Source of the DNA: Bacilli bacterium
Lineage (GTDB): Bacteria > Bacillota_I > Bacilli_A > ML615J-28 > CAG-698
Length of the DNA stretch: 64,000 nt
NCBI GenBank assembly: GCA_050174575.1
Contig: JBFXJT010000003.1
Span: 1,689 to 65,688, forward strand
Direction: 5' to 3'
Of this stretch, positions 2,768-45,042 are shown one piece after another. Every line of letters starts with the position of its first letter. Position 1 is the first letter of the stretch. Both the position numbers and the translations under genes were made by a program. The notes beneath the pieces are model-generated. The model was not told the origin of the DNA. It did no database searches and saw only the letters and a list, made by a program, of their open reading frames with translations.

Positions 2768-3763
2768 ATGGCATTATTAGAAGTAAAAAATTTACATACA
2801 TATTTTAGAACCAAAAGAGGAACTGTAAAAGCCGTAAATGGTGTTAGCTATACTCTTGATGAAGGAAAAACTCTTGGCATCGTTGGTGAAAGTGGCTCGG
2901 GGAAAAGTGTTTCCGCAATGTCCATTTTACGTTTATTAGATGGTAATGGTTATATTGATCAAGGTGAAATTTTCCTTGAAGGAACTAATTTAGTAAATGT
3001 CAGTGAAAGAGCCATGCAACACGTTCGTGGAAATAAGATTTCGGTCATTTTCCAAGAACCAATGACTTCTTTAAATCCTGTCTTTACAGTTGAACGTCAA
3101 ATTGGTGAAGTATTCCAAATTCACCAAGGAATGAGCAAAAAAGAATCTTACGTGAAAAGCGTGGATTTGCTTCGGGAAGTTGGTATTCCTAATCCCGAAA
3201 AAGTTGCGAAAACATATCCGCATCAATTAAGCGGTGGTATGCGTCAACGAGTCATGATTGCCATGGCCTTAGCTTGTCGCCCACGTATTTTAATTGCGGA
3301 TGAACCAACGACCGCCCTAGATGTTACGATTCAGGCGCAAATATTAAAATTAATGAATGACTTAAAAAAAGAATCTAATATGGCGATTATTTTCATTACC
3401 CACGATTTAGGTGTAATTAATGAAATGGCAGATGATGTAGTCGTTATGTATTGTGGTGAGATTGTCGAAAACGCACCGGTAGATGTCATTTTCTCGGATA
3501 ATTGTAAGTTCTCACATCCTTACACAGAAGGTCTAATGACTTCAATCCCACGTTTATCAACTGATAAAGAACGCTTGGAAGCTATTCCTGGTGCTGTTCC
3601 TCATCCACTTGATTTACCAAAAGGATGCAAATTTGCCCCAAGATGCAAATATGCTACTGAAAGATGTTTAAATGAAGAACCAGATTTAATTAAAGTTTCC
3701 GACATTCAAGCGGTACGCTGTTTCTATCCGAACATCGAGGAGAGACAACATGGGAAAAAGTAA
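2768..3763 (+). CDS. oppD: Oligopeptide ABC transporter ATP-binding protein OppD
   Basis: Has Walker A 'GESGSGKS', the ABC signature 'LSGGMRQR', Walker B 'ILIADEPTTALD' and an OppD-type C-terminal Cys-rich tail. The start has an AGGAGG RBS. Confidence 0.85.
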   Translation: MALLEVKNLHTYFRTKRGTVKAVNGVSYTLDEGKTLGIVGESGSGKSVSAMSILRLLDGNGYIDQGEIFLEGTNLVNVSERAMQHVRGNKISVIFQEPMTSLNPVFTVERQIGEVFQIHQGMSKKESYVKSVDLLREVGIPNPEKVAKTYPHQLSGGMRQRVMIAMALACRPRILIADEPTTALDVTIQAQILKLMNDLKKESNMAIIFITHDLGVINEMADDVVVMYCGEIVENAPVDVIFSDNCKFSHPYTEGLMTSIPRLSTDKERLEAIPGAVPHPLDLPKGCKFAPRCKYATERCLNEEPDLIKVSDIQAVRCFYPNIEERQHGKK

Positions 3764-5906
3764 AGTATTAACAAACGAACCACTAATTAAAATAGTGGGA
3801 ATGAAAAAATATTTTCCACTTAAAAAAACCCACTTATTCCAAAAAGAAGCATTAACAGTAAAAGCCAATGATGGTGTCGACCTAATAATTCATAAAGGCG
3901 AAACTCTTGGTTTAGTTGGTGAAAGTGGTTGTGGAAAATCAACCCTTGGCCGTGTTCTTTTACAATTATACCCACAAACATCGGGAAAAATTATTTATTA
4001 TGGTTATACTTTGGAAGACTATTCACCGAGATATTTATTTAAAGAAATTAATCGGTTGAAAACATCTCGTTTAAAATACGAAAACTTATTAAAGAAAATT
4101 CCTTTAATCGAGAAGAAAATCGAAAAAAAGAAAAGCGATCCTTCTTTCCAAAACCAAGTAAAAGCTAACGAACAAGAAATTGCGAAATTGCAAGCTGAAT
4201 GCGATCAAATAGCTAGTGACTGTCGAAATGATTTTGGCACATTCTTCTCTTCTAATAATATGAAAGCAATTAAGCAATCATTAAAGCTTGATGAATTTGT
4301 TTATAAGAGTGGAGAAAAAGTTGCTCAATTAGAATTAAGATTAGAAAAACTTGCTTTAGACTTAGAAAAAGCTAAAAAAATCAAAAACTTAAAAGCTGAA
4401 GCTGAAGTTGCAGCAATAAAAAAACAATTGGAAAACGCTGACTTAAACCTCATTGCTGACTTAAATAAAAAGTTATCGATTGCGGAAAGAAAAGCGCAAC
4501 ACCACATTATTTCTGTGGATATCGATATTCGCGAGACACAAAAAAATATCAATATCATTAAAGATGATACACAAAGAAGTATCGCTAGAATTAAACAAGC
4601 GCTTGAAAAGCCGATTGAATTAAACACGGAAATAATCACTAAACTTGTTAGTCGCAAACAAGAACATTTTGAAAAGGAAAAACGCTTAAAACAGCTTCAA
4701 GACTTTAATCTTTTTTCAAAAGAAAAAGGTCAAATTAAAAACATTAGTAAGCAAATCGAAAAACTAATCAATAAAACAGCCAATGTAACTGGAGCATTCG
4801 TTCTATCTGATGACATTGCTGAAGTTTCGAGAACATTGTTTAAAAACATTGATGTATTGCATAGGATTCAATTAAACAAGGATAAACTAAATCTACTTGA
4901 AGTTAGAAAGTTTAAAGTAGAACAAAAAATAGCTGACGATAAAGAAACTTATACTGACTTCCAAAAAGATGTTTTCCAAGAACGCCTTGACAAGTTAAAC
5001 AAAAAAATTGCTTTCTTAGAAGCTCAAAACGAGTCTTTGTTAGAACAAACAAGACAATTGTCACAAGCAATTAAAGATGCCAACGAAAAATTATCTTCTC
5101 ATCCGATGTATCAAGAACTTGAATCAAAAAAAGAAAAAGGCCTTGATTTATCGCGTTTGACTGGTGAAGAAATGCGTCGCTTACGTCAAGATATGCAATT
5201 AATCTTCCAAGATCCATATTCATCTTTGAATCCAAGATTAACAGTTGGACAAATTATTGGTGAGGGATTAAAAGCCCATGATGTTGAACTGAAAACCAAA
5301 GATAATTACCAAGATATTATTTTAAAAGTCATGGATAAATGCGGATTGGCACCATACATGTTACATCGATATCCACATCAATTTTCTGGTGGTCAACGTC
5401 AAAGAATTGGTATTGCCCGAGCTTTAGCCGTTAATCCAAAATTTATTGTTTGTGATGAAGCAGTTAGTGCTTTAGACGTTTCTATTCAATCACAAATTAT
5501 TAATTTGTTGGAAGATTTACGTGACCAAGAAAACTTAACTTATTTGTTCATCTCCCACGACCTAAGTGTTATTAAACACATTAGTGATCGTATCGGAGTC
5601 ATGTACCTAGGGAAAATTGTAGAATTGGGTAATGCGGATGAAGTTTATAAACGCCCATTACATCCATATACAAAAGCGCTTATTTCCGCAATCCCTACTA
5701 CAGATCAAGGAACAAAACAACGCATTTTCTTGGAAGGCGACATACCTTCGAACGTCTTTCCACCAAGTGGATGTAAGTTTAGAACACGTTGCCCATTAGC
5801 ACGTAAGGAGTGCGCACAACGCGTACCGGAATTCCGCGAAGTTGAACCTGGTCGCTTTGTTGCTTGTCATTTTTATGAAGAAACAGAAACTATTAAACCG
5901 TCTTAA
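3750..5906 (+). CDS. oppF: Oligopeptide ABC transporter ATP-binding protein OppF with a ~400 aa coiled-coil insertion in the nucleotide-binding domain
   Basis: Walker A 'GESGCGKST' sits near aa 60, but the Q-loop 'FQDP', signature 'FSGGQRQR' and Walker B 'FIVCDEAVSALD' appear only after aa ~470. The intervening segment is K/E/L-rich with heptad character. It overlaps the oppD stop by 14 nt. Confidence 0.8.
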   Translation: MGKSKVLTNEPLIKIVGMKKYFPLKKTHLFQKEALTVKANDGVDLIIHKGETLGLVGESGCGKSTLGRVLLQLYPQTSGKIIYYGYTLEDYSPRYLFKEINRLKTSRLKYENLLKKIPLIEKKIEKKKSDPSFQNQVKANEQEIAKLQAECDQIASDCRNDFGTFFSSNNMKAIKQSLKLDEFVYKSGEKVAQLELRLEKLALDLEKAKKIKNLKAEAEVAAIKKQLENADLNLIADLNKKLSIAERKAQHHIISVDIDIRETQKNINIIKDDTQRSIARIKQALEKPIELNTEIITKLVSRKQEHFEKEKRLKQLQDFNLFSKEKGQIKNISKQIEKLINKTANVTGAFVLSDDIAEVSRTLFKNIDVLHRIQLNKDKLNLLEVRKFKVEQKIADDKETYTDFQKDVFQERLDKLNKKIAFLEAQNESLLEQTRQLSQAIKDANEKLSSHPMYQELESKKEKGLDLSRLTGEEMRRLRQDMQLIFQDPYSSLNPRLTVGQIIGEGLKAHDVELKTKDNYQDIILKVMDKCGLAPYMLHRYPHQFSGGQRQRIGIARALAVNPKFIVCDEAVSALDVSIQSQIINLLEDLRDQENLTYLFISHDLSVIKHISDRIGVMYLGKIVELGNADEVYKRPLHPYTKALISAIPTTDQGTKQRIFLEGDIPSNVFPPSGCKFRTRCPLARKECAQRVPEFREVEPGRFVACHFYEETETIKPS

Positions 5907-5982
5907 AATAACACCTGAAAAAGAAGCTTTAGCTCGTCAAAAGCTTGAAGAAACACCTTTAGAAAAAGGTGATTTACGAGCT

Positions 5983-6081
5983 TTGTTAATTGCAGCCTTT
6001 ATTATGTTTGTCTTACCCACTATTGGAGTATTGGCTGTATTAGCATTCATTATGTGGTTAATCTTTTTTGCAGGAAGATAA
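5983..6081 (+). CDS. Possible small hydrophobic membrane peptide of ~32 aa (TTG start), or 25 aa from ATG 6004
   Basis: A strong RBS 'AAAAAGGTGAT' sits 9 nt upstream of an in-frame TTG. The translation 'LLIAAFIMFVLPTIGVLAVLAFIMWLIFFAGR' is a single TM helix, located between oppF and spx. Confidence 0.2.
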   Translation: MLIAAFIMFVLPTIGVLAVLAFIMWLIFFAGR

Positions 6082-6102
6082 CAAAAAGAGATAGGAGGGA
6101 AC

Positions 6103-6540
6103 ATGATTAAAGTTTATACTTCACCCAGCTGTTCTTCATGTCGCAAAGTGAAAAAATATTTCCAACAATATAAGATTCCTTATGTTGAAAAGAATATTTT
6201 ATCAACACCTTTGTACCGTGAAGATATCTACAAAATGCTTATGAACAGCGAAAATGGATTTGAAGACATAATTTCAACGCGCTCAAACGTTTTTAAAGAT
6301 TTAAATGTTGATTTGAATAAAATGAAAACGAATGAACTTGTGGAATTTATTGTTCAAAATCCAAGCGTATTAAAAAGACCAATCATAGTTACCGACTATG
6401 AAATTCAAGTTGGTTACAATGATGACGATATTGAGTTATTTTTACCACAAGAACTCCGCGATATCGATTGCCTACACTGTGTTCCTGAAAAAGATTGTGA
6501 ATACATAAAGGCAATTAAAATTGTTGAAAAATCAGCATAA
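6103..6540 (+). CDS. spx: Spx/ArsC-family global redox regulator (Spx-like)
   Basis: The N-terminal 'MIKVYTSPSCSSCRKVKKYF' carries the CxxC motif. Conserved 'IISTRSNVFKDLNV' and 'LKRPII' match Bacillus Spx, and the length is 145 aa. Confidence 0.85.
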   Translation: MIKVYTSPSCSSCRKVKKYFQQYKIPYVEKNILSTPLYREDIYKMLMNSENGFEDIISTRSNVFKDLNVDLNKMKTNELVEFIVQNPSVLKRPIIVTDYEIQVGYNDDDIELFLPQELRDIDCLHCVPEKDCEYIKAIKIVEKSA

Positions 6541-6545
6541 AAAAA

Positions 6546-6576
6546 GGGCTAAGATGAAAAATCTTAGCTCTTTTTT
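6546..6576. terminator. Bidirectional rho-independent terminator between spx (+) and yjbK-like (-)
   Basis: The sequence GGGCTAAGAT-gaaaa-ATCTTAGCTC is followed by TTTTTT on the + strand and flanked by A-rich sequence for the - strand. Confidence 0.6.
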
Positions 6577-7144
6577 AATGCAAACGTTTATAAGCGTTAT
6601 ATGCTCGACGAATTTTTTTATCGGATTTTCGATATTGTATTTCAAGTTCGTTAATGATTTGAATAAATTCTTTTTTTCCTCCACTGTATGTTTTGGCTTC
6701 ATATTCCAATTCATAATCAGTAGTTCCAAGGTAATCACTTTTATCGATAAATAAAACACCAGTTTTATATGGCATATACATTCTTAAAGTCGAAAGACTT
6801 AAGAAGTTTACGAGCTTTTGTGAGCCAATTAAAGAAATTAATTCATTCTTTATATCACTTTCAGGAACAACTCCGGTTGTTCTAATTTCTTTAAATGTAT
6901 CTGCATCAATCGGAATAGTATACTCCTGCATTGAATAACCTTTTTTTCTTTTTAAAGTTAATTCTAGATCATCACGTTCCCGAACACGTAAAGAAGCATC
7001 TAAAGCTTTTAAAGAAAAGCGGGGCGTGTCAAAATAATGATTTGTTTGAAAATCGGAACGATTTCCCTTAAATAATTCAATTAATCGCCCATATTCTTCT
7101 TTTGATAATAACGTTTTAAATTCGACTTCAGTATTGGTGTGCAT
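6575..7144 (-). CDS. CYTH-domain protein (YjbK-like triphosphatase)
   Basis: Its size and its position divergent from relQ/nadK mirror the B. subtilis yjbK-yjbM-ppnK arrangement. The N-terminal 'EVEFKTLLSKEEY' matches a CYTH-like beta-strand/EXEXK region. Confidence 0.55.
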   Translation of the reverse strand: MHTNTEVEFKTLLSKEEYGRLIELFKGNRSDFQTNHYFDTPRFSLKALDASLRVRERDDLELTLKRKKGYSMQEYTIPIDADTFKEIRTTGVVPESDIKNELISLIGSQKLVNFLSLSTLRMYMPYKTGVLFIDKSDYLGTTDYELEYEAKTYSGGKKEFIQIINELEIQYRKSDKKIRRAYNAYKRLH

Positions 7145-9703: not shown

Positions 9704-10726
9704 ATGGACAATCAATTAAAACAGCTGCAAGAACAATTATTAAACGAGCTTGAAAATGTAAAAACGACGAATGAACTGAACGAAACAAAAGCTCTTTACT
9801 TGGGCAAAAAAAGCCCAATTCAAGATTTGTTTGCGAAAATGAAAGATTTAAGCATTGAAGAAAAAAAGGCTTTAGGTCAAAGCGTCAATTTGTTTAAAGG
9901 TTTTGTGGAAGAGCAAATAGCTAAAAAAGCAGAACAATTGGAAAACAATAAAATTAACGCTCAATTAGAGAGTGAAGCAATTGATGTTACCCTCCCTGGA
10001 GCAACTTTTGTTCAGGGCAACAAACATCCCTTAACAAAAATGACTGAAGAAATAGAAGATATTTTTATTGGTATGGGATATAAAATTGCTGAAGGACCGG
10101 AAGTTGAACTCGATTTATTTAATTTTGAAATGCTCAATTTACCAAAAGGCCACCCAGCTCGCGAAATGCAAGATTCATTCTACATTGATGCTAATACACT
10201 TTTACGAACACATACTTCTCCTGTTCAAGTAAGAACACTTTTAGCGGCAAACAAACAACCGGTTAAAATCATCTGTCCAGGGAAAGTATATCGCCGTGAT
10301 GATGATGATGCGACCCATTCCCATCAGTTTATGCAAATCGAGGGGTTGGTCGTAGATCACAATATAACGATGTCCGATTTAAAAGGAACATTGACGCTAT
10401 TGATGCAAAAAATGTTTGGCACGAGCTTAGAAGTTCGTTTTCGCCCATCCTTCTTTCCTTTTACTGAACCAAGCGTTGAAGTCGATGTTACTTGTTTTAA
10501 ATGTAAAGGCAAAGGATGTCCGCTATGTAAAAATGCTGGCTGGATTGAAGTATTAGGGGCAGGTATGGTTCACCCTAACGTTTTAAAAATGTCGGGTTAT
10601 GATCCAAATGAATTTCAAGGATTTGCTTTTGGCATTGGAATTGAAAGAATCACAATGCTTCGATATGGAATTGATGACATTAGAAATTTTTATACTAATG
10701 ATCTTCGATTTCTTAAGCAGTTTTAG
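9704..10726 (+). CDS. pheS: Phenylalanine--tRNA ligase alpha subunit
   Basis: Class II aaRS motifs '[12 protein letters not shown]' and '[10 protein letters not shown]', with the expected length and context. Confidence 0.9.
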
Positions 10727-10735: not shown

Positions 10736-13120
10736 ATGCGTGTAAAATTAGCATGGTTAAATGAATTAATTGATATATCCGACTTAAGTATCGAACAGTT
10801 GACTAAAGTAATTTCCCTTTACAGTACAGAAGTCGAGAGCGTTGAACGGGTTGCCAGTGGAACTTCCTTGGTTATCGGACATGTTTTACAATGCGAATCC
10901 CATCCTGACTCAGATCATTTGCATATTTGTTTAGTTGATATAAAAGAAGAGCAATTACAAATTATCTGTGGAGCACCAAATGTAAAGGCTGGACAAAATG
11001 TCATTGTTGCGAAAATCGGATGTAGCCTCCCTGGAGGTTTAGTCATCAAAAAAGCGAAAATTCGTGGAGTTGAATCCTCGGGCATGATTTGTTCACTTGC
11101 GGAACTTGGCATTGAAAAAAAGTACATTCCCGAAGAATACCAAGCAGGAATTTACTATTTTAAAGAATCTGTCGAAATAGGCAGTCCAGCACTAGAAGCA
11201 CTTGATCTTGCTGATGTTGTTTTAGATTTGTCGATTACCCCTAATCGTGGTGATTTAATGAGCATGTTAGGTGTTGCAATTGAGGTTGGAGCCGTCTTAA
11301 AGCGACCGTTAAAACCACTTGCTTATTCGCTTGAAAATTACGAAAAAGCACTTAATTTATCAATTACTCTAGAATCAAACAGCTGCGTTGGATATTATGC
11401 TCAAGTTTTTGAAAATATTCAAATAAAACCTTCTCCTTGGTGGCTAATTGCGCGTTTAATCGCTTTTGGCATAAGACCGATAAATAATGTAGTTGACATT
11501 ACAAATTATATTTTGGCGCTTTTTGGTCAACCGCTTCATGCTTTTGATTATGAAAAATTGGGATCAAAAATTGTTGTTCGTCAAGCTTTTGATAAAGAAC
11601 AATTTATAACTTTAGATGGAATCAAAAGAGACTTGGTTACGACAGATTTGGTTATTACGGATGGTAAAAACCCTGTTGCTCTCGCGGGAGTAATGGGCGG
11701 ACAAAACACAGAAATAACAAATACCACAAATTCCATTGTTATTGAAGCAGCTGTATTTGATCCAATGGCTGTTCGCAAAACATCCCAAAGATTAAATTTA
11801 AGAAGTGAATCATCAGCTCGTTTTGAACGTGGCGTGGATATCAATCGCACAAAAGAAGCGTTAGTGTATACACGTTATCTCTTAGAAACATTGGCGTGTG
11901 CTAAACCACTTAGCGATGTTGCTATTGCTGGTGTTGGCAATATTGAAGATACACCAATAAGCATTTCGGAACAAGATATCAATCAATTGCTTGGCATAAA
12001 AATATCCAAAAAAGAAATTCAAAACATTTTTGAACGACTGTTATTTAAAGTAACAAGTACTTCCAATTTATTAGTAATGGTTCCTAACCGGCGAAGTGAT
12101 ATTCGCATAAAAAACGATTTAATTGAAGAAGTGGGCAGAATCCATGGATACACCGATTTGCCTAACACGTTACCTGAATCATCGATTGCTGGGTCTTTGT
12201 CATTAAAGCAGGCTCAGAGACGATTAATCAAGCTCACTTTAGCAAATTTAGGTTTGAATGAAGTTGTTACTTATTCACTTGTTAATGATCAATATAATCA
12301 AGTTTTTATGCAAAATCATCTTACGGGCAGTCAACAACTAAAATTAATCAATCCGTTGACACAGGAACGAGGAATTTTAAGAAAAGGATTGTTGTTAAGT
12401 TTATTGGATGTGGTGCAATATAATTATTCTAGAAAAATGAAAGATATAGCTTTGTTTGAAGTTGGTAAAGGTTATAGTTTATTAGATTCTTCCAAAGAAG
12501 AAGAAATACTATCGATGGCAATGGCTAATAATTATTTCAGCAATATTTGGAAACACAATTTAAAAGTAGATTATTACATCATTAAAGGTGTGTTAGAAAA
12601 CCTTGCTTCTCAATTAAAAATTAAACTCGATTTTAAACCGATAAATGAACCAAGTTTGGAATTACATCCAAAAAGAAGTGCTGATATCTATTTTGAAAAC
12701 AAAAAAATCGGCTTTATTGGATGTCTCCACCCACAATTTGCTTTATCGCTTGGACTTGATGAAGTTTATGTTTGTGAAATAAAAATCAATAAAATTTTAG
12801 ATTTTGTTCCAGTACAAAATACATATAAACCAATCAGTAAATATCCAAGCATGGAACGTGATTTAGCAATCGTTCTTCCAAGAACAGTGCTTGCAAATGA
12901 TATCATCGAAACAATCAAAAAAGTTGATGATCAAATAATCAGTGATGTTTTTGTTTTTGATGTTTACACAGGGGAGAATGTGGAAAAAGACGAAAAATCA
13001 ATTGCTGTAAGAATTGTTTTCACAGCAAACGAACCGCTAAGTGATGAAGTCATTCTTCCGAAGACAAATCGAATCATGAAAGTCTTAAGTGCAAATTTCC
13101 AAGCAAAATTAAGAAGTTAA
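10736..13120 (+). CDS. pheT: Phenylalanine--tRNA ligase beta subunit
   Basis: A 794 aa protein following pheS with the tRNA-binding N-terminal domain, B3/4, B5 and the FDX-ACB C-terminal region. Confidence 0.9.
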   Translation: MRVKLAWLNELIDISDLSIEQLTKVISLYSTEVESVERVASGTSLVIGHVLQCESHPDSDHLHICLVDIKEEQLQIICGAPNVKAGQNVIVAKIGCSLPGGLVIKKAKIRGVESSGMICSLAELGIEKKYIPEEYQAGIYYFKESVEIGSPALEALDLADVVLDLSITPNRGDLMSMLGVAIEVGAVLKRPLKPLAYSLENYEKALNLSITLESNSCVGYYAQVFENIQIKPSPWWLIARLIAFGIRPINNVVDITNYILALFGQPLHAFDYEKLGSKIVVRQAFDKEQFITLDGIKRDLVTTDLVITDGKNPVALAGVMGGQNTEITNTTNSIVIEAAVFDPMAVRKTSQRLNLRSESSARFERGVDINRTKEALVYTRYLLETLACAKPLSDVAIAGVGNIEDTPISISEQDINQLLGIKISKKEIQNIFERLLFKVTSTSNLLVMVPNRRSDIRIKNDLIEEVGRIHGYTDLPNTLPESSIAGSLSLKQAQRRLIKLTLANLGLNEVVTYSLVNDQYNQVFMQNHLTGSQQLKLINPLTQERGILRKGLLLSLLDVVQYNYSRKMKDIALFEVGKGYSLLDSSKEEEILSMAMANNYFSNIWKHNLKVDYYIIKGVLENLASQLKIKLDFKPINEPSLELHPKRSADIYFENKKIGFIGCLHPQFALSLGLDEVYVCEIKINKILDFVPVQNTYKPISKYPSMERDLAIVLPRTVLANDIIETIKKVDDQIISDVFVFDVYTGENVEKDEKSIAVRIVFTANEPLSDEVILPKTNRIMKVLSANFQAKLRS

Positions 13121-13148: not shown

Positions 13149-13199
13149 AAGACACATTATATGATTAAACTTTACACTTGTCATATAATGTGTTTTTTA
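13149..13199. terminator. Bidirectional terminator between pheT (+) and ispH (-)
   Basis: A 13 bp inverted repeat ACACATTATATGA...TCATATAATGTGT is followed by TTTTTTA. Confidence 0.55.
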
Positions 13200-14105
13200 T
13201 TTAATAAAATCATCATCTTTTAAATGTGATTTAAAAATATGATCGTTATTTTTTAAAGAATTGATAATTTCTTCAACAATGGCATTGGGAGTCGAAGCAC
13301 CGGCTGTCACACCAATTTTATGAAAATTTTTGAGATTTTGTCCCGTTAAATCTTCAACCCTTTCTAAAAACAATGTTTTTAATTGTGCTTTTTTTTCACC
13401 AACTTCTTTTAACATTTTAGTGTTATTGCTATTAGGGTCGCCGACTACAATTAATAAATCGAGTTTATTTTTGTAATCAATAATGGCCGTTTGCCTTAGT
13501 CTTGTTGCATTGCATACTTCTTCTACAAGCTCTAATTGAGGAACAAAAACCTTTAACCGATGATAGAAATTGGTAACATCGAGATAGGACATGGTTGTTT
13601 GCGTTGTCAACACAGCCTTTCTATCAATTGTTTTGGGAATATCGTTAAGATCGCTTTGGTCGGTGACTAAGATAATTTGATCCGATAAACCTAAAATGCC
13701 TTCTGTTTCAGGATGATGATCAACACCATAAAAGTAAACGATATATCCTTCGTTTAACTTGCTTTTAATTAGTTGGTGCGTTTTTTTCACATCTTTGCAG
13801 GTGGCATCAACAATAAACAACCCTTTATCAATAGCTGTTTGACGGATAGCATCGCTTACACCGTGGGCGGTAAAAATAATCGTTCCCGATATAACCATAT
13901 CGAGCATTTCTTTTCTTGTTTCACCATCCAAAACAATTATGCCTTTATTCTTAAAGGCATTTACAATATTCTTATTATGGACAACATTTCCAAGCATATA
14001 AATAGGTCGGATGACTGTTGGGTCATTCAATGTTTTATTGATAATGTTAATTGCTTTCGCAACCCCCATACAAAACCCTTGAGGTTTAATTTTTATAATA
14101 TCCAT
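13197..14105 (-). CDS. ispH: 4-hydroxy-3-methylbut-2-enyl diphosphate reductase (IspH/LytB)
   Basis: Matches in 'MDIIKIKPQGFCMGVAKAI', 'HNKNIVN' and 'TAGASTP'. ATG at 14105 has a GGTGA RBS; the track's longer ORF uses an upstream TTG. Confidence 0.85.
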   Translation of the reverse strand: MDIIKIKPQGFCMGVAKAINIINKTLNDPTVIRPIYMLGNVVHNKNIVNAFKNKGIIVLDGETRKEMLDMVISGTIIFTAHGVSDAIRQTAIDKGLFIVDATCKDVKKTHQLIKSKLNEGYIVYFYGVDHHPETEGILGLSDQIILVTDQSDLNDIPKTIDRKAVLTTQTTMSYLDVTNFYHRLKVFVPQLELVEEVCNATRLRQTAIIDYKNKLDLLIVVGDPNSNNTKMLKEVGEKKAQLKTLFLERVEDLTGQNLKNFHKIGVTAGASTPNAIVEEIINSLKNNDHIFKSHLKDDDFIK

Positions 14106-14208
14106 CTTTTTCACCAACTTAATTATAACATATGAAGAAGACGGATACTAACAATACTAATGAAATTTTTTAGTCATTATGATATAATACTTATCAGTGG
14201 AGGAAAAT

Positions 14209-15087
14209 ATGAACTATACTTTGCAGAATGAATATATCCAAATAACTGTTAGAAGTTATGGAGCAGAATTGATTTCGTTAAAGAGCACTAACAAAATAGA
14301 ATATATATGGCAACGGAATCCTGAATTTTGGAATCGCTGTGCCCCCGTTTTATTTCCTGTTGTTGGCCGTCTTTTAGATAAACACATGATGATTGCTAAT
14401 AAAAAATATGAAATGGATATCCATGGTTTTTTAAAAGATCAAGAATTTTCTTTGTTGTCACAAAGCGACACCCAATTGTCGCTTGTTAACCGTTTTAGTG
14501 AAGAAACACTGAAGCAATATCCATTTAAATATGAAGTAGTTATCAATTATTATTTGTTTAACAAACAATTACGAACAGAATATGTTGTGAAAAACATTGA
14601 TCAAAATGATATATTTTTTAATATCGGCGGTCATCCAGCCATCAATATACCCCTTTACCCAAATGAACAATTTAGTGATTATACAATTACATTTGAGCAC
14701 GAAGAAACATTTGATGCACCAACGATTGAAAAAAACGGAACACTTAATTTTGATGTTCCGGCAGTAACTTATACCAATTTAAAACAATTAGTCTTAGATC
14801 GTTCATTATTCTTTTTGGATACAATTGTCATTCCTAAAATAAAATCTCGGGAAGTATTTTTATTAAACAAACACCATCAGGGAATTGCTTTTCGCTTTTA
14901 TAACTTTACGACTTTTGCCATTTGGACAAGGTATCATCAACAAGCACCATTTGTTTGTTTAGAACCATGGATGGGCTATGGTGATCGCTACAATTCCGAT
15001 CATGATTTCTTGAAAAAAGATGATTTACAAAAATTACCACCAAAGACAACTTTTGTAGCTTATTATGATGTTGAATTGATGGAATAA
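14209..15087 (+). CDS. Aldose 1-epimerase family protein (LacX/GalM-like)
   Basis: Galactose-mutarotase-like features 'NEYIQITVRSYGAELISLK' and 'PVLFPVVGRL'. ATG 14209 has a GTGGAGGA RBS; the track ORF starts at an upstream GTG. Confidence 0.65.
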   Translation: MNYTLQNEYIQITVRSYGAELISLKSTNKIEYIWQRNPEFWNRCAPVLFPVVGRLLDKHMMIANKKYEMDIHGFLKDQEFSLLSQSDTQLSLVNRFSEETLKQYPFKYEVVINYYLFNKQLRTEYVVKNIDQNDIFFNIGGHPAINIPLYPNEQFSDYTITFEHEETFDAPTIEKNGTLNFDVPAVTYTNLKQLVLDRSLFFLDTIVIPKIKSREVFLLNKHHQGIAFRFYNFTTFAIWTRYHQQAPFVCLEPWMGYGDRYNSDHDFLKKDDLQKLPPKTTFVAYYDVELME

Positions 15088-15145
15088 AAAGACTATACAA
15101 AAACGAAAAATTGTAGTATAATAACATAAGCTATTAGGAGGAACT

Positions 15146-15703
15146 ATGATTACCACAAGTGATTTTAAAACGGGAATAACCATTGAATACGATGGGAATG
15201 TATATACTGTCATGGAGTTTCAGCATGTGAAGTCCGCAAACAGTATGGCATTTGTAAGAACAAAATTAAAAAACATGCGCACAGGAGCAATCATTGAAAT
15301 TGCTATCAATCCAAAAGACAAAATTAAAAAAGCGATGATTGAAAAGAAAAAAATGCAATATTTATATGATGGCGGAACTTCCCTAGTTTTTATGGACATG
15401 GAAACATATGAACAAATCGAAATTCCAAGCGACAATCTAACATATGAAAAGAACTTCTTAGTTGAAGGAGCATCAGTTTTAGTTGTTGATTTTGAAGGTG
15501 AAATCCTTGGTGTGACTTTACCTGAAAAACTTGTCTTAGAAGTTCGCGATTGCCCTCCAGGCGTCAAAGGAAATACAGCAGCTAACGCTACTAAAGAAGC
15601 GGTTTTAGAAACTGGATTTCACGTTCAAGTACCACTGTTTATTGAAGCAGGGGAAAAAATCATTGTTAACACCGTTGAAGGAAAATATTATTCCCGTGCA
15701 TAA
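15146..15703 (+). CDS. efp: Translation elongation factor P
   Basis: Matches EF-P in 'FVRTKLKNMRTGAIIE' and 'VPLFIEAGEKIIVNT'. The modified-loop tip reads K-S-A-N-S-M, with Asn where Lys/Arg is normally conserved. Confidence 0.9.
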   Translation: MITTSDFKTGITIEYDGNVYTVMEFQHVKSANSMAFVRTKLKNMRTGAIIEIAINPKDKIKKAMIEKKKMQYLYDGGTSLVFMDMETYEQIEIPSDNLTYEKNFLVEGASVLVVDFEGEILGVTLPEKLVLEVRDCPPGVKGNTAANATKEAVLETGFHVQVPLFIEAGEKIIVNTVEGKYYSRA

Positions 15704-15705
15704 AA

Positions 15706-15729
15706 AAGAGGTCACCTCTTTTTTTTCTT
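15706..15729 (+). terminator. Putative terminator after efp
   Basis: AAGAGGTCACCTCT is followed by T8. Confidence 0.4.
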
Positions 15730-15774
15730 GTATTCAATCTGTTTTTAATGTATGATTATAAAAGAGGTGATATT

Positions 15775-16542
15775 ATGTTACTTTGCATCGATATTGGAAA
15801 TACAAACATTGTTTTAGGCGTTTTTTTAGACAATCATTTATCGCATAGTTTTCGGATGCAATCTAATTTAATGAAAACAGCTGATGAATATGGGACAAAA
15901 ATTATTGATATTTTGACTTTTCATGAAATTGATTATCATGAAATAACTGGTGTTATTATATCAAGCGTTGTTCCCGGCTTGGATAGTACATTCGAAAAAC
16001 TAATTGAAACATATTTTCAAACAAAAGCTTTATTTGTTGGGCCAGGAACAAAAAGCGGCATCAAAATTAAAATTGACAATCCTAAACAACTAGGTGCAGA
16101 TATTTTGGTTGGTGCAGTAGCAACCCATCACAAGTATGGTGCTCCAGCTATAATCATTGACATGGGAACAGCCATTACATTCGCTTATTTAAATCAAGAA
16201 AAAGAATTGCTTGGTGGCGTTATCGTTCCCGGAATTAAAACGGCTTTTAGCAGTTTAGTTTCCAAAACTTCAAGATTAGAGGAAGCAAGAATTGATGTAC
16301 CTTTAAAGGTTATCGGAAAAGATACTGTTTCTTCAATTCAAAGTGGAATGGTTTTTGGAACAGCTTCCATGATTGATGGCATGATAAAAAAAATAAAAAA
16401 AGAAATGAATACTGACGAACTACTTGTTGTCTTAACTGGTGGTGAAGCACGGTTAATTAAGCCATATTTAGAAGAAAATGTCATTTACGATGAAAATTTA
16501 TTACTTGACGGATTACGCATCATTTATCAAAAAAACCAATAA
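15775..16542 (+). CDS. coaX: Type III pantothenate kinase
   Basis: 'MLLCIDIGNTNIVLGVF' is the typical CoaX N-terminus. RBS AGAGGTGA precedes ATG 15775; the track ORF starts upstream. Confidence 0.85.
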   Translation: MLLCIDIGNTNIVLGVFLDNHLSHSFRMQSNLMKTADEYGTKIIDILTFHEIDYHEITGVIISSVVPGLDSTFEKLIETYFQTKALFVGPGTKSGIKIKIDNPKQLGADILVGAVATHHKYGAPAIIIDMGTAITFAYLNQEKELLGGVIVPGIKTAFSSLVSKTSRLEEARIDVPLKVIGKDTVSSIQSGMVFGTASMIDGMIKKIKKEMNTDELLVVLTGGEARLIKPYLEENVIYDENLLLDGLRIIYQKNQ

Positions 16543-16577
16543 AAATAACCCTAGATTGAATTCTAGGGTTATTTTAT
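16543..16577. terminator. Bidirectional terminator between coaX (+) and the GNAT gene (-)
   Basis: AACCCTAGA-ttgaa-TTCTAGGGTT is followed by ATTTTATT. Confidence 0.55.
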
Positions 16578-16994
16578 TCTTCGCATGTGATAGTGAGGGA
16601 TTCTGGCATCATAGAATAATTCACCATAAACAACATAACCACATTTTTCATAAAAAGGAATGGCATGTGTTTGAGCATCAAGGATTATTTCTTTCACGAA
16701 GTTTTCATCACAATATTTGTGAAGTTCCATCATTAAAGAATAACCATATCCTAATGAACGATATTCTTTTAAAATACAAACGCGCTGAATTTTTGCTTTA
16801 TTATTGTCTATTTTGATTCTTGCTGCACCAATTGGCTTTTCGTCATCATAAACGACAAACATTACTCGATCTTTTTCTTCAAGATCGAATTCTTCTTCCA
16901 TGGTAACATTTTGTTCACCAACAAAGACAATTTTACGAACAATGAAATGATCGATTATTTGGTTTTTTGTTGTGCAAATTTCATATCTTATCAT
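16569..16994 (-). CDS. GNAT family N-acetyltransferase
   Basis: GNAT fold signatures and the RSLGYGYSLM motif A. Confidence 0.6.
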   Translation of the reverse strand: MIRYEICTTKNQIIDHFIVRKIVFVGEQNVTMEEEFDLEEKDRVMFVVYDDEKPIGAARIKIDNNKAKIQRVCILKEYRSLGYGYSLMMELHKYCDENFVKEIILDAQTHAIPFYEKCGYVVYGELFYDARIPHYHMRRIK

Positions 16995-17842
16995 ACAAAT
17001 ACTCCAGTTGCGATTAAGATTAAAACAACGGTTGCAACAAGCAAACAGTAGAAGCCAAAATATTTTATGTTTTTGTGTTTTACTAATTTAAAGAATAGCG
17101 TTATTGCAACATATGTTCCTACTAAACTGGCAATAAAGCCACCAATGTATCCTCCCCAAAAAACAGGTTCGGTAAGGGCTTCATCAGGATTGATTAAATC
17201 ATAAAGCCCTAATAAGGCAGCAGCAATACTTGCGGGGATATACATCATAAATGAAAAACGCAAGGCCTTGTCTAATTTTAGATGGTTGGCAACGCCTACT
17301 GAAGAAGTAACGCCCGAACGGCTAATTCCAGGCAATAAGCCGATGACCTGGGCACCACCCATTAATAAAGCATCTTTCCAAGTCACATCATCTCTAATCG
17401 CTTGTGTTTGTTTTTGTGCAATAAACAACAACAGCAATCCTGTAATGAAAAGGGAAATTCCTACGACTAATATATTTGTATAATATTGATCCCAATTATT
17501 AAACTTAATAATTAAACCAACGATACCTGCAGGGATTGTTGCCAGGATTATATATAAGACATAAAGGAAGGCAGGTTTTTCCTCTTTATTACTTTTAAAG
17601 AGAAATTGCCAACTTCCAACAATTAGTTGTTTTATTAATTGACGGTAATAAATGATAATAGCCAATAAGGAAGCAAAATTTACGGCAATTTGAAAATTAT
17701 TCATGGCTTCCTTAGAAACAACATTGCCAAATATTTGATCAAAAATAACCATATGGCCACTTGAGGAAATTGGTAATGGTTCTGTTACGCCCTGAACTAG
17801 ACCAAGCAATAAGTACTTGATGAATTCTATAAACTTTTCCAT
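16991..17842 (-). CDS. uppP: Undecaprenyl-diphosphatase (BacA/UppP)
   Basis: Contains 'GVTEPLPISSSGHMVIF' and 'PGISRSGVTSSVG' with ~8 TM segments. Confidence 0.85.
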   Translation of the reverse strand: MEKFIEFIKYLLLGLVQGVTEPLPISSSGHMVIFDQIFGNVVSKEAMNNFQIAVNFASLLAIIIYYRQLIKQLIVGSWQFLFKSNKEEKPAFLYVLYIILATIPAGIVGLIIKFNNWDQYYTNILVVGISLFITGLLLLFIAQKQTQAIRDDVTWKDALLMGGAQVIGLLPGISRSGVTSSVGVANHLKLDKALRFSFMMYIPASIAAALLGLYDLINPDEALTEPVFWGGYIGGFIASLVGTYVAITLFFKLVKHKNIKYFGFYCLLVATVVLILIATGVFV

Positions 17843-30030: not shown

Positions 30031-31500
30031 TCATTTATCGTAAGTTATTCCGATTTCAAAAGCCCGATTCCATGGGAAATAAGCTTTATAATTTTGTTTA
30101 AAGAATGGGTCGGACAAAACATGTAGCTCTTTTTGCAACAATTGTTTTAATTCATTGTTTGGTTTAAAATCAAACAAGTTTAAAAAATTAAGTCGCAAAT
30201 ATTCATGAACTTTTCCTCTCACGATATCTTGATAAAAACAATCATCAATAATTCGTTCTTGTAAGAACACATTTGTAAGTGCTATGTTTGGCGAAGTTTG
30301 ACTGCAATAAATTAGGGCTGTTGCAAGTAGGCTCCCAGTAGCGTTAGAAGCAGTATTCCAAGCACTATAACCTTTTAATTTTAAGAAATCAAGCTGTTTT
30401 AATAACCAAAAACAGCCGCCATTAGGTGTATGAATATCTAGCAAAAAGACAGGAGTTTTATTTTGCAGTACTTTATTTAGTTGCTCAATGAAGGAATTCG
30501 TGTTTTGGTCGGATAAGGCCTCTAATGGATGTTCGCGATCAGCGATTTCCATTTTTTGGAAGTTATCGCCTTGAAAAATTGCTAAAACAAACGATGCCTC
30601 TTGAATATCGTTCGTTCTTTGCATATGTAAAATGCTGGTCATTTTATTTAGGTTTTCTAAATAAGGACGATCTTCAAATGGAAGACAAATGTTTAATAGT
30701 TCTTCTTTTGGGTGCAACAGAAAATATTTTAATTCACGGTTTCCGATATTACTAATGATTTTTGCAAGTAAAAAAGTGGTTCCTTCATCGGTGCCGTTAT
30801 ATAACCAAGCTTTTTCTTCTAAATGGTGCTCTTTAATCTGCGCCATTAAAAGATCATGCTCCAATGTTTGCAAACCATCAGCCATTGAATCTTCTTGAAG
30901 AAGAAGCAAAAAATCAATTTCATTTTGTTGCAACATATTAATTGCTAGTTTGTTTACTTCGTGTTTTTTAATTCTTGCGATTTCATATGTTTTTAAAACA
31001 TCAACAGGGATTTTTAAACTAATTTCTTGAAACTTTTCACAGTCCTTTTGCTCATGGTATCGTAAATATTTTCCCTTATAACGGCTATACTCATTGATTA
31101 AACGCCAGTATTGTTTCGTTTTTTCATCAAATGTAGAAATGGAAGTGCGAAGAACGGTATCAAACATATAAATTTTTAGTTTTGGATTATGTTTTTTTAG
31201 TTTTTTTATTAATTGAATTTTATATTGTAATTCTTCTTTTGAAAAATTAGCACTTCTGCTTTGAATTAGTCCTCCACTAATGATACTATCTAGTGGACAA
31301 ATTAAATAATCGAGATTTCTTGCTTCTTCGTTTAAGAAGTTTTCGATGTTTTTAAAATCAAGTTTTGTATGGAGAGTCCCTAATTGGGTTTTATCCATCG
31401 TTATCAAATTGACGTTTGCTAATTTTGCTAATGTAATTGCCCAATCGTAATTACAAGGCCGACTATCTAGAGGAATTAAGCCAATATTCGTTTTCATCAT
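30031..31500 (-). CDS. Uncharacterised cytoplasmic protein, paralog A of a ~500 aa family (DUF4127-like; assignment from memory, unverified)
   Basis: Shares the N-terminal 'IGLIPLDSRPCNY' and C-terminal 'SAWNTASNATGSLLA' motifs with the paralogs at 45043 and 48483. The ATGATG start follows an AAAGGAG RBS; the track ORF is extended upstream. Confidence 0.5.
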   Translation of the reverse strand: MMKTNIGLIPLDSRPCNYDWAITLAKLANVNLITMDKTQLGTLHTKLDFKNIENFLNEEARNLDYLICPLDSIISGGLIQSRSANFSKEELQYKIQLIKKLKKHNPKLKIYMFDTVLRTSISTFDEKTKQYWRLINEYSRYKGKYLRYHEQKDCEKFQEISLKIPVDVLKTYEIARIKKHEVNKLAINMLQQNEIDFLLLLQEDSMADGLQTLEHDLLMAQIKEHHLEEKAWLYNGTDEGTTFLLAKIISNIGNRELKYFLLHPKEELLNICLPFEDRPYLENLNKMTSILHMQRTNDIQEASFVLAIFQGDNFQKMEIADREHPLEALSDQNTNSFIEQLNKVLQNKTPVFLLDIHTPNGGCFWLLKQLDFLKLKGYSAWNTASNATGSLLATALIYCSQTSPNIALTNVFLQERIIDDCFYQDIVRGKVHEYLRLNFLNLFDFKPNNELKQLLQKELHVLSDPFFKQNYKAYFPWNRAFEIGITYDK

Positions 31501-31569
31501 AAGCTCCTTTTTGTTCATATTGTAACACAGGCAATTTAAAAAGAGAATAAGAATATTTTTAAAAATCAA

Positions 31570-31598
31570 TTGACTAGACATTTAGTTGGTGCTATAAT
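31570..31598 (+). promoter_or_regulatory. Consensus sigma-A promoter (TTGACT-17-TATAAT) with an operator-like TTGACTAGACA element over the -35
   Basis: The -35 and -10 boxes are read directly. The identical 11-mer TTGACTAGACA recurs at the promoter at 50031. Confidence 0.5.
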
Positions 31599-31609
31599 CA
31601 AAGGCGTGA

Positions 31610-31623
31610 TGTAAACGTTATCA
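31610..31623 (+). promoter_or_regulatory. Catabolite-responsive element (cre, CcpA site) just downstream of the -10
   Basis: TGTAAACGTTATCA matches the TGWAANCGNTNWCA consensus at every constrained position. It lies within a larger 8-5-8 inverted repeat AAACGTTA-tcagt-TAACGTTT (31613-31633). Confidence 0.5.
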
Positions 31624-31681
31624 GTTAACGTTTTCCGTCTACTATAGCAGTTTATCAAACTGCAAAGAAAAGGAGAAAAAG

Positions 31682-33229
31682 ATGTTTAAAAAATTAATGA
31701 TTGCCTTTTTAATGATTGCCTCGGTTTTCATGTTTGTTGGATGTACTAAAGATGACGACGTTGTTGAAAGCTTAGACAACATTAAAATTTATGGCCCGTT
31801 TGACACATTTGACCCAGAAACTGATTATGTTCATCAACTAATCAAAGATATTACTGGTGTTGATGTTGATTATGACTTTTTACCACAAGATGGCGCTTCT
31901 GCAAATACTAAACTTTATTTAGATATTGCTGGACAAGCAGAATACCATTTGATGAAACTTGCTCCTACTCAATTTGATCAACTAAGAGCTGTTGGAGCTT
32001 TACTCGATATTACTGAATTACTAAACGAATATGGAACAAATATTACAAGTTCTGTTAGTGAAGAAGTATGGAAAACAGCAACTTACGATGGAAAAATTTA
32101 CGGTGTTCCTCAAAAGAACCCATCAAACAACATCAATAGTGCTTTATTCTTAAGAAAAGACATTTTTGTTGAAAACGAGATAGCTCTTCCAACTACTTTA
32201 ACGGAATTTAAAGATGCTATGGTTGCTTTAAAAACAAAATTAGGAACTGGATTTGTTCCTTTCAGTGCTAGTTCACATAACATTGAACCAATTAGAGGCG
32301 CCTTTGGGATCGTTACTGACTGGGTTCCACAAACTGATGGCACTTTAAAATATTGGACAGAAACAGCTGCTTTCTAAGACTATGCAGATTATATGAAAGA
32401 ATTAGTTGACTTGGGAGTTATGCAAGATGGTTATTTAACAATCCCTAATTATGGTGCAAATAGCCGTGCCGGATTGCAAAACGGAACAGTTGGTGTTACA
32501 CTAGATGCATGGTGGAGTGGCAATGGTATTATCAATGGTATCGCTGCTTCAGAAGGACAAACAGAAGAATATGTAATCGAACACGCTGCTGATTACTTAC
32601 ATTTTATTGACTCTTTATTAGGTGATGCTAATTATGGTACACCAGGAAAAGGTCAAGCTAAAATGGATTATTCCGTTACTTATTTCTATGCTATTCCAAA
32701 ATATATGGAAAACACAGCCATGGCCGTTATTAAATGGATGAATGAAAAAATGGATCCAGTTAACTTCAAACGTTTAACAATTGGTGAAGAAAATGTTCAT
32801 CATACACTTGTTGATGGCAAATATTTCCCAATATTAACACCTGATACTAATGGAAAAATTCCTTTTGATTCTTTCAATAAAGGTGATTATTTCTTAACTG
32901 GTATTCGCGAAGAAGATTATTCATTATACTGGCAATGTCGAGCTCGTAAGAATCCTCGTCAACAATTTGTTTGGGAAGGAATGAATACAGAAGCACAAAA
33001 AACAAGTGTCGGAATTTATGATCGCGTTGGTCTAGCTCCAGGATTCTTAATTTATGGCGCTAATAAAACGAAATTATCACAACTTACGACTGATTACTTA
33101 GTAAGTGTCATCACAGGCCAAGGGACACAAATGACACAAACTGAATTCAATGCGAAATTAGTTGCAGAAGCACAATTAACAGAAAGCATCGCTGAAGTTA
33201 ATGCTTGGTATGCAACTCTTGGTGATTAA
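31682..33229 (+). pseudogene. LplA/YesO-type extracellular sugar-binding lipoprotein (ABC SBP family 1) interrupted by an in-frame TAA at 32375-32377
   Basis: Lipobox 'FMFVGC'. ORFs 31682-32377 and 32393-33229 are in the same frame, and the read-through translation '...YWTETAAF*DYADYMKELVDLG...' is continuous SBP sequence. Confidence 0.6.
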
Positions 33230-33250
33230 TCCGCATTCGGAGGTAAATTA

Positions 33251-33886
33251 ATGGTTAATAGAGCACTTTTTGTTATGGGGCGTTTATTTTTATTAAATGT
33301 CATATATATTCTTACGATTGCTTTTAGTGTAGGAATATTGGTTGCCCCGGCAACAAGTGCTCTTTTTTATTGTACTAAAGACTTGTTAAAAAAAGATACA
33401 CACGAGTTTGGCTTTTTCAAACAATATATTAACATCATCAAAACAAAATTCCGTTATAGTTTTTTGTTTGGACTGATTGCTTTGATTATTCTTTATCTAT
33501 GTATCGTTAATTTAGATAATGTATTATTGCTGAATTATGAACAATGGTTATTAAAAACAATTGTTGTATTTCAATATATTATTATTCTTGAAACTTCTTT
33601 AATGTTTATTATGGTTCTTTTTTTGAATGGACTGTTTGTTTTTAATAAGTTTTCTGATTTATTAAAAATGTCTTTTTTCATTTTACATCGACATATCCTA
33701 ACAACTATTTTGTTGGGTATATCCGTTATTGTTCTCATCTATGTTTTTATTTATTACATCAACGCTTTATTCTTATTATTGTTTTTTAGTATGATTAGTT
33801 TATGGGTCAATTTATTATATTGGCCTATCGTGATAAAATATATAAAAAAGGAGGAAAAACCCGAACATGAGCAAGAAACCGAATAA
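33251..33886 (+). CDS. YesL-like membrane protein (DUF624)
   Basis: The N-terminal pattern 'RLFLLNVIYILTIAFSVGILVAPATSALFY' and its size/TM layout are typical of DUF624 proteins that accompany LplABC transporters. Confidence 0.55.
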   Translation: MVNRALFVMGRLFLLNVIYILTIAFSVGILVAPATSALFYCTKDLLKKDTHEFGFFKQYINIIKTKFRYSFLFGLIALIILYLCIVNLDNVLLLNYEQWLLKTIVVFQYIIILETSLMFIMVLFLNGLFVFNKFSDLLKMSFFILHRHILTTILLGISVIVLIYVFIYYINALFLLLFFSMISLWVNLLYWPIVIKYIKKEEKPEHEQETE

Positions 33887-34805: not shown

Positions 34806-34807
34806 TT

Positions 34808-36766: not shown

Positions 36767-36776
36767 GGAGTAATTT

Positions 36777-37736: not shown

Positions 37737-37745
37737 GGGGTAAAG

Positions 37746-39449: not shown

Positions 39450-39461
39450 GAAGGATTAGTG

Positions 39462-41767: not shown

Positions 41768-41770
41768 TAT

Positions 41771-41795
41771 CAGTGCCATTTTTTGGCACTTTTTA
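41771..41795 (+). terminator. Terminator after the GNAT-GntR gene
   Basis: AGTGCCA-tttttt-GGCACT is followed by TTTTAATTT. Confidence 0.5.
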
Positions 41796-41797
41796 AT

Positions 41798-41809
41798 TTG
41801 TATATACAA
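41798..41809. promoter_or_regulatory. Perfect 12-bp palindrome TTGTATATACAA (GntR-family GT-N-TA-N-AC operator type) in the promoter region of the GHL10 gene
   Basis: Read directly. It lies ~17-28 nt upstream of a TATAAT at 41826-41831. Confidence 0.4.
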
Positions 41810-45030: not shown

Positions 45031-45042
45031 AAGGCCGAACTT

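Follow-up and report, generated by a model that had tools for sequence, protein, structure and literature searches.

Genes and features at the efp locus

The window, the whole stretch of 64,000 nucleotides (64 kb) analysed here, comes from the metagenome-assembled genome (MAG) of a Bacilli bacterium and contains a gene for elongation factor P (EF-P) with Asn at the tip of its conserved loop. The efp coding sequence, taken from the list of open reading frames (ORFs), lies at 15146..15703 on the + strand and encodes 185 amino acids plus a stop codon. Its product is a three-domain EF-P with the loop S-A-N-S-M. At 15224-15250 the codons are cat gtg aag tcc gca aac agt atg gca, translated as H27 V28 K29 S30 A31 N32 S33 M34 A35. 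The loop codons, from aag to the last gca (15230..15250, +), thus supply K29-S30-A31-N32-S33-M34-A35. Asn32 (codon aac, 15239..15241, +) stands at the loop tip, the position of K34 in E. coli, K32 in B. subtilis and R32 in P. aeruginosa, and is followed by Ser33 (codon agt, 15242..15244, +). An AGGAGG ribosome-binding site, read from the sequence, precedes the efp ATG (15136-15141, +). A promoter-like site (TATACA, 17 nt, TATAAT) was found further upstream by a consensus scan at 15094-15122 (+) and does not exceed the shuffle expectation. A terminator-like hairpin (15702-15724, +; with its T-run, 15702..15734) lies directly after the efp stop, and the scan found two terminator-like sites where shuffled sequences gave 0.5. 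Since the hairpin and T-run are directly 3' of the stop codon, efp looks like its own transcription unit.

The EF-P fold is described as a KOW-like domain I followed by two OB domains, and the window protein has this architecture. Pfam matches were obtained to EFP_N (PF08207, residues 3-60, E = 2e-21), EFP (PF01132, residues 68-120, E = 3e-18) and Elong-fact-P_C (PF09285, residues 130-184, E = 2e-24). The score against the TIGR00038 'efp' equivalog is 230.5 bits, above the cut-off of 185.8. Residues 1-184 were aligned by phmmer without gaps to EF-Ps of known structure (6rk3/6rji of S. aureus, 1yby of C. thermocellum), with 'hvksansmaf' over 'HVKPGKGSAF' of S. aureus or over 'HVKPGKGAAF'. The alignment being gapless, no indel can shift a Lys or Arg to the loop tip, and misalignment or a hidden indel was rejected. 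A preliminary description of this DNA, made from the sequence alone, had placed Asn32 and its codon residue for residue at the tip; this placement is correct, and the mis-scored indel that it allowed for is not the case. An AlphaFold2 model (mean predicted local distance difference test score 90.7) was assigned strands at residues 18-28 and 36-43 by DSSP, with a 7-residue beta3-beta4 loop, residues 29-35, centred on N32. The best PDB fold matches of the model in Foldseek are EF-Ps, with template modelling (TM) scores of 0.83-0.91 to 1ueb, 6rk3 and 6s8z. The window protein is deposited as MGD9604733.1 at NCBI ('MAG: Bacilli bacterium') and, as are all proteins with the SANSM loop, is publicly annotated as plain 'elongation factor P'.

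The canonical Lys-type EF-Ps of Bacillota (B. subtilis; S. aureus 6RK3/6RJI) likewise have three domains and 185 amino acids, align without gaps, and carry a 7-residue loop flanked by H-V-K and A-F-V-R. Against the S. aureus chains the E value is 4e-55, and identity in the structure-based alignment is 47-49%. Their loop reads K-P-G-K-G-x-A, whereas the window loop is without the Pro at -2, the Gly at -1 and +1, and the basic tip; the five residues S-A-N-S-M (30-34) stand for P-G-K-G-Q of the nearest canonical relatives. K32 of B. subtilis EF-P is 5-aminopentanolylated. Having no basic tip, the SANSM loop offers no substrate for any known Lys modification. About 96% of EF-Ps carry Lys or Arg at this position, a typical trait but not a defining one, as 4% of those catalogued have A, M, N or Q there (PMC6544042).

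The preliminary description overstated the matter in holding that the tip is always Lys or Arg elsewhere. In the survey of 1166 EF-Ps by Volkwein et al. 81% of the tips are K, 14.8% R, 2.23% N, 0.77% M, 0.6% Q and 0.51% A (PMC6544042), and Sieber et al. list Asn among the tip residues, not characterised (PMC11611912). In the survey an Asn tip goes with Pro at -2 in 100% of cases, and a gene resembling that for deoxyhypusine synthase (DHS) is often present (PMC6544042). These catalogued Asn-tip EF-Ps, from Chlorobi, Verrucomicrobia and others, share the protruding Asn with the window protein and are functionally uncharacterised (PMC6544042). Their loops are of the form (S/T)-P-G-N-(W/L)-R, whereas the window has S-A-N-S-M, with Ser30 at -2, on a Bacillota/Mollicutes backbone. 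Among the 150 nearest cluster representatives at 50% identity the tips are K (107), R (26), N (5), Q (5), M (3) and A (1). Four of the five Asn tips are P-G-N-[WL]-R and one is K-G-N-W-R. The SANSM proteins form no separate cluster at 50% identity and fall inside K-type clusters. The Asn tip is therefore not new in itself; the proline-free SANSM loop is outside the catalogued Asn (P-G-N) class. Neither this loop nor a tandem efp was described for the Acholeplasmatales in the literature searched, the coverage of which is incomplete.

Other proline-free loops are found in Acholeplasma oculi (K-S-A-R-S-G), Erysipelothrix (K-T-A-Q-R-Q-M) and Mycoplasma mycoides (K-T-G-R-Q-Q-G), for which no modification enzyme is known (PMC6544042). 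They share the K-[ST]-A/G start with the window loop, and many of the 150 cluster representatives have related K-T-A-[RQM] loops. In these loops of Mollicutes and Erysipelotrichia, however, the tip is Arg or Gln (Met in some cluster representatives), not Asn, and the downstream residues differ. The unmodified P-G-K-G-P loop of Actinobacteria, in which architecture replaces modification (10.1101/2023.09.18.558224), is represented by C. glutamicum 6S8Z, the best structural match of the model (TM score 0.91). It keeps the tip Lys and owes its rigidity to two prolines, and SANSM has neither. The EarP type, with rhamnosylated Arg, a K-S-G-R-N-type loop and an earP gene, shares the Ser at -2; the window protein has an Asn tip and no EarP domain occurs in the covered window ORFs (see below). 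EfpL (YeiP) of Gammaproteobacteria (PDB 8S8U) is a duplicate with a redesigned, unmodified loop beside the canonical EF-P, in concept like the tandem pairs treated below (PMC11611912). The window protein falls short of both EfpL/YeiP models (NF003392, 124 vs. 216 bits; TIGR02178, 110 vs. 264 bits), and its loop has 7 residues and an Asn tip.

Genomic context and tandem copies

Two groups of EF-Ps are distinguished, namely group B, to which the window belongs and which has proteins of 185 amino acids, and group A, the Acholeplasma/Paracholeplasma group, with 187-190 amino acids. Upstream of efp the window carries pheS (9704-10726, +), pheT (10736-13120, +), ispH (13197-14117, -) and an aldose-1-epimerase-like gene (14197-15087, +). 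Downstream are coaX for type III pantothenate kinase (15748-16542, +), a GNAT acetyltransferase gene (16569-16994, -) and uppP/BacA (16991-17842, -), named by Pfam on locus L014, a contig identical to the window, and on relatives. The frame of group B as a whole is clpP (where the locus reaches that far), pheS, pheT, ispH (-), aldose-epimerase-like gene, efp, coaX, GNAT (-), uppP (-) and tkt. All group-B SANSM loci, the window included, have one efp in the slot between ispH/epimerase and coaX. Canonical PGKGQ relatives, 59-70% identical to the window EF-P, have their efp in the same slot, and the closest relatives (70% identical) are of this canonical Lys type. The frame is full in L015-L019, L040 and L041 and without the epimerase gene in L039; in L038 only ispH, epimerase and efp are visible. 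Because the slot holds a canonical PGKGQ efp in relatives, the window gene is the positional orthologue of canonical efp. It is a true EF-P gene, neither decayed nor foreign, and encodes the housekeeping EF-P of the lineage. No second efp occurs within the 64-kb window, and the SANSM gene is presumably the sole copy in its genome.

In L039 a gene for an ABCF ATPase (5361-6920; ABC_tran, ABC_tran_Xtn, ABC_tran) lies directly upstream of the canonical efp, where others have the epimerase gene. In B. subtilis EF-P has genetic partners among the ABCF proteins, YfmR being one of them.

The group-A frame consists of mutS, mutL, miaA, aroK, aroQ, efp, rluB, cmk, rpsA and der, and the efp locus within it occurs in four states. 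P. brassicae has a PGKG copy only and L028 a KSARSG copy only. SANSM alone is found in P. vituli (L007), in the P. manati type (L042) and in L002/10/11/13, whereas L003, L020-25 and L033/34 have a SANSM copy in tandem upstream of a PGKGG copy. The tandem pairs, from Acholeplasmataceae MAGs, were located at L003:2-1051 (-), L020:5001-6195, L024:4367-5564 and L034:653-1882. A spacer of 61 nt separates the copies and contains a hairpin with T-run and the AGGAG ribosome-binding site of the downstream copy. The ratio of nonsynonymous to synonymous divergence (omega) is 0.04-0.10 for the N copies and 0.04-0.05 for the K copies. Within one tandem genome the synonymous divergence (dS) between the N and the K copy exceeds 2, so the duplication is old and is not being homogenised, and recent gene conversion between tandem copies is not supported. 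The KSARSG/KSARGG class has an Arg tip and is represented by P0219, P0232 and L028 (4001-4558), the last at the group-A efp locus; no EarP gene was seen near efp genes of this class.

Tandem pairs in several species, with both members under purifying selection and dS between them saturated, fit an explanation in which the SANSM protein is a specialised paralogue, with a role like that of EfpL/YeiP in other stalls or in regulation, and acts beside a canonical Lys-tip EF-P encoded outside the 64 kb. EF-P paralogues whose loop and substrate range differ are already known (PMC11611912). The explanation is nonetheless held to be unlikely. The SANSM gene of the window clade fills the slot of the only canonical efp visible in relatives, and genomes of the P. 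vituli and P. manati types no longer have the canonical tandem member at the locus, none being found within +/-10 kb in L042 nor within the 8-kb loci of the P. vituli type. A weaker point is that no K-type protein of P. vituli or P. manati is among the matches listed.

Distribution, conservation and origin of the loop

A degenerate DNA pattern for HVKSANSMAF matched in 13 of 185,579 GTDB species genomes, in every case inside an efp gene. By the author's estimate about 0.3 matches would be expected by chance in the 596 Gb searched, and 100 shuffles of the window gave none. The matched genomes are Acholeplasmataceae, 'Bacilli' or 'Tenericutes' MAGs and that of the cultured P. vituli 92-19. Eight metagenome contigs also matched, all in efp genes, and P. 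manati carries the same loop (WP_263608201.1). The two MAGs titled 'uncultured Bacteroidales' (L004, CAZYFI010000012.1; L005, CAYQUB010000076.1) have loci syntenic with the window and EF-Ps 95% and 75% identical to that of the window, respectively; their labels are probably wrong or the bins contaminated.

The loop was also recovered by whole-protein similarity, without reference to the loop itself, in 13 protein clusters. Exact KSANSM is present in six clusters when the 120 top-scoring homologues of the window protein are taken, nearly all others being PGKG; the top 120 for the protein of Paracholeplasma vituli add seven more. Together these 240 best homologues comprise 220 with full PGKG, 13 with SANSM and 3 with SAR(S/G)G, the singletons being P0068 (SGKG), P0062 (VNPGKG), P0220 (PGKG after LV, not HV) and the already counted SARSG. 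PGKG, SANSM and SAR[SG]G are discrete classes, and no intermediate near SANSM was found among the 240. P0068 (HVKSGKGQAF) and P0062 (HVNPGKGQAF) are one-residue departures, each from one short metagenomic contig, and could be intermediates or errors. A 40-residue loop-centred query for near-variant loops returned a single irrelevant match.

Alignment of related EF-Ps, proposed in the preliminary description as a check on the conservation of the Asn tip, gave the same HVKSANSMAF loop across the lineage. A sequencing error in codon 32, which the description had considered, is excluded by the same loop in independent genomes and metagenome contigs. The identical loop occurs in independent assemblies from NCBI, JGI, ENA and Logan and the alignment to solved EF-Ps is gapless; an artefact as the cause of the Asn tip, whether an error of sequencing or assembly at codon 32 or faulty scoring of the alignment, accordingly has negligible probability.

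SANSM proteins of groups A and B are 49-57% identical with the loop unchanged (56% for the window EF-P and that of P. vituli L007). Codons K29 to M34 occur in 13 synonymous DNA spellings with zero amino-acid replacements. Between the window gene and those of L009, L004 and L012 omega is 0.02-0.03, with synonymous sites saturated (dS >1.2). The SANSM efp is under strong purifying selection.

A degraded loop would be expected if the polyproline function had become dispensable in small, AT-rich, proline-poor genomes and the loop had drifted. Among the 20,434 residues of the 52 window proteins there are indeed only 13 PP and 0 PPP, where a Pro content of 3.7% would predict about 28 PP, and EF-P is dispensable in several bacteria (PMC11381351). 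A comparison of PP loss near SANSM and PGKG genes was uninformative, with too few PP in the flanks and similar values in K-type relatives; the window lacks genes for ValS, IleS, Lon, ClpC and FtsH. Drift would differ by lineage, whereas one exact loop is kept at 49-57% identity with synonymous changes only and with the low omega given above. Moreover, group-B SANSM EF-Ps carry a P-P-G motif of their own, in the window protein Pro137-Pro138-Gly139 (15554..15562, +), preceded by C136 (C-P-P-G, 15551-15562). Of 12 group-B SANSM proteins 11 have Pro137, against 2 of 19 group-B canonical proteins, and the motif is not found in group-A SANSM proteins. A C-P-P-G within the factor itself does not suggest an inability to translate Pro-Pro-Gly. 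Degradation of the loop is therefore regarded as very improbable.

The SANSM proteins do not form one clade. In a loop-masked neighbour-joining tree (179 columns, 500 bootstraps) group A was recovered in 93% and monophyly of all SANSM proteins in 0% of replicates. Two indels mark all 23 group-A proteins and none of the 31 group-B proteins (N and K types in each group), namely one residue inserted after position 117 and an extension of the C-terminus. In a four-cluster count outside the loop, 11-12 columns group the proteins by lineage and 0 by loop type, and only residues 30-34 separate N-type from K-type in both groups. Within group B, a tree of PheS, PheT and IspH (1398 columns) placed the SANSM loci L035, L001 and L008 with the K-type loci L039 and L041 at 100%, apart from the window clade, which joins the K-type loci L015 and L040; the split of N from K types received 0%. 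A single monophyletic Asn-EF-P clade was rejected on the loop-masked trees, the indels, the four-cluster columns and the flanking-gene trees. As each SANSM protein groups with the PGKG proteins of its own lineage, either repeated origin or transfer of the loop alone is called for, and the distribution of SANSM is patchy and probably polyphyletic.

Ser33 is encoded by AGY in every group-B SANSM gene and by TCN in every group-A SANSM gene. AGY and TCN cannot be interconverted by one substitution without leaving Ser. The AGY of group B is one step from the GGY codons of Gly. Synonymous similarity beside the loop is not raised between SANSM clusters, and with the difference in the Ser33 codon family this leaves a recent short-patch DNA transfer of the loop unsupported; an ancient loop exchange is possible. 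In the KSARSG loop of L028 both Ser codons are AGT, whereas Ser30 of SANSM is TCN, and this difference argues against direct descent of one from the other. Extensive gene conversion would have to be assumed if an ancient tandem pair had been lost differentially, and the tandem genomes show no sign of it. Read most simply, the data point to at least two acquisitions of the identical loop and probably to three or more, whether by convergence or through an old exchange confined to the loop.

Modification and proposed mechanism

Forty window ORFs were scanned with Pfam and 10 more, efp included, were named from the efp Pfam search and synteny annotation; the ORFs at 50089-55473 (1794 amino acids), 60082-61038 and 62474-63220 lie outside the family scans. 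The covered ORFs yielded no tRNA-synt_2 (EpmA), radical-SAM (EpmB), EpmC, EarP, DS (deoxyhypusine synthase), SDR (YmfI) or glycosyltransferase domain, which bears out the statement of the preliminary description that known modification-enzyme genes are not seen in the window. A DHS-like gene, often present in the genomes of the catalogued Asn-tip EF-Ps, was likewise not found within the 64 kb. No modifier candidate is linked to efp in either syntenic context, and SANSM and PGKG genomes have identical neighbours there. N-glycosylation of the Asn, as had been proposed, is not supported, in that N32-S33-M34 is not an N-X-S/T sequon for cytoplasmic N-glycosyltransferases and no glycosyltransferase gene was found near efp in about 40 loci.

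A new modification of Asn32 or of Ser30/Ser33 by a shared enzyme, whose recognition would explain the conservation of all five residues as for EarP and KSGRN, would suit the residue at +2, Met34, which is invariant in SANSM although it is free (Q/A/S/G) in canonical loops. Loop composition tracks the modifying enzyme in known systems (PMC6544042). The recurrence of the same loop on different backbones suggests a very specific partner, which could equally be the ribosome or the tRNA. In view of the missing sequon, and with neither a candidate gene linked to efp nor a known modifier or glycosyltransferase in the covered ORFs, a modification of this kind appears distinctly unlikely. The SANSM loop is most likely unmodified, at least by any pathway of the Lys/Arg type.

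EF-P and IF5A are thought to act through a long basic side chain at the tip, usually extended by lineage-specific modifications, and how EF-Ps without a Lys or Arg tip work is an acknowledged open point (PMC6544042; PMC11611912). The explanation that accounts best for the data overall, and is considered reasonably probable, is that the window gene encodes a housekeeping EF-P and positional orthologue of the canonical factor, in which SANSM has taken the place of PGKGQ through a repeated origin of the loop. Because ordinary EF-P constraint acts on the remainder of the protein, the SANSM EF-P is predicted from sequence to bind still between the ribosomal P and E sites and to stabilise the P-site tRNA. 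The long modified cationic side chain would give way, at the peptidyl-transferase centre, to a short, neutral and fixed loop with the carboxamide of Asn and Met34. The contact made by this loop would be specific and short-range, because these two groups are too short to copy the reach of a modified Lys. The SANSM form coexists with the canonical copy as a tandem duplicate or stands alone at the efp locus, as in the window clade, P. vituli and P. manati. In B. subtilis efp K32A corrects the impaired growth seen in the delta-efp delta-yfmR mutant, a function independent of K32 (PMC11381351), and unmodified EF-P and EfpL types exist, of which EfpL works through the design of its loop (PMC11611912).

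Several points weigh against the explanation preferred here. E. coli EF-P K34N is inactive on a polyproline reporter, K34A, K34M and K34Q being inactive also (PMC6544042), and B. subtilis K32A phenocopies delta-efp on the P10 reporter (PMC11381351); a short neutral tip within a canonical loop thus gives no polyproline rescue. The coexistence of SANSM with a canonical copy in tandem genomes fits a specialised role as well as it fits replacement. The searches for a second efp and for modifiers cover the 64-kb window and the loci, and a canonical efp or an enzyme may be encoded elsewhere in the genome, since 64 kb without either says little about the whole genome. The invariance of the loop in the pattern-derived loci (L001-L013, L030-L037) is partly due to ascertainment, to which the homology-based matches are not subject. 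Finally, the tree of EF-P is a neighbour-joining tree on 179 columns in which SANSM copies may evolve faster, and the number of origins within each group is uncertain. Either the whole SANSM context compensates for the short tip, or the factor serves another class of stall; its function is in both cases a prediction.

A further-reaching proposal is that SANSM represents a second self-sufficient design of the EF-P loop, neutral, with no basic residue and no modification, reached independently at least two or three times from P-G-K-G-x and displacing the canonical factor. This is put forward tentatively and is held to be less likely than not. If SANSM were self-sufficient, the cationic 'finger' would not be a requirement of factors of the EF-P/IF5A type. 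A modified loop would instead imply a new system of modification directed at Asn or Ser, and if the loop acts only beside a canonical copy it would still be a new class of EF-P paralogue in Mollicutes-related bacteria. The same five-residue solution on separate backbones points to a specific structural answer. The loci provide a natural contrast, with the same backbone and locus carrying either PGKGx or SANSM, some genomes having both and others the Asn form only at the locus; Paracholeplasma vituli and P. manati are cultured, growable carriers of the Asn form.

Other features of the window and of related loci are as follows. An Rfam scan of the 64-kb window gave no match at the gathering threshold, and no tRNA, rRNA or riboswitch was detected. 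At 759-2756 the window encodes an OppC-type ABC permease (BPD_transp_1, OppC_N) with inserted RCC1-like beta-propeller repeats, and the next-but-one gene (3750-5906) encodes an unusually long Opp ATPase of 718 amino acids. A sugar-utilisation cluster occupies 30031-50012 and includes three DUF4127 paralogues (30031-31581, -; 45043-46545; 48483-50012), together with genes for a GH84-like beta-N-acetylglucosaminidase, NanE, a GHL10 protein, an NAGPA-type phosphodiester glycosidase and a GNAT-GntR/UTRA fusion regulator. It is followed by the 1794-amino-acid ORF at 50089-55473 mentioned above. In relatives, Pfam matches to the spore-coat protein CotZ and the small acid-soluble spore protein SSPI were obtained at L015:7788-8198, L039:13971-14177 and L040:8793-9230, which is unexpected in bacteria labelled Acholeplasmataceae or Tenericutes.

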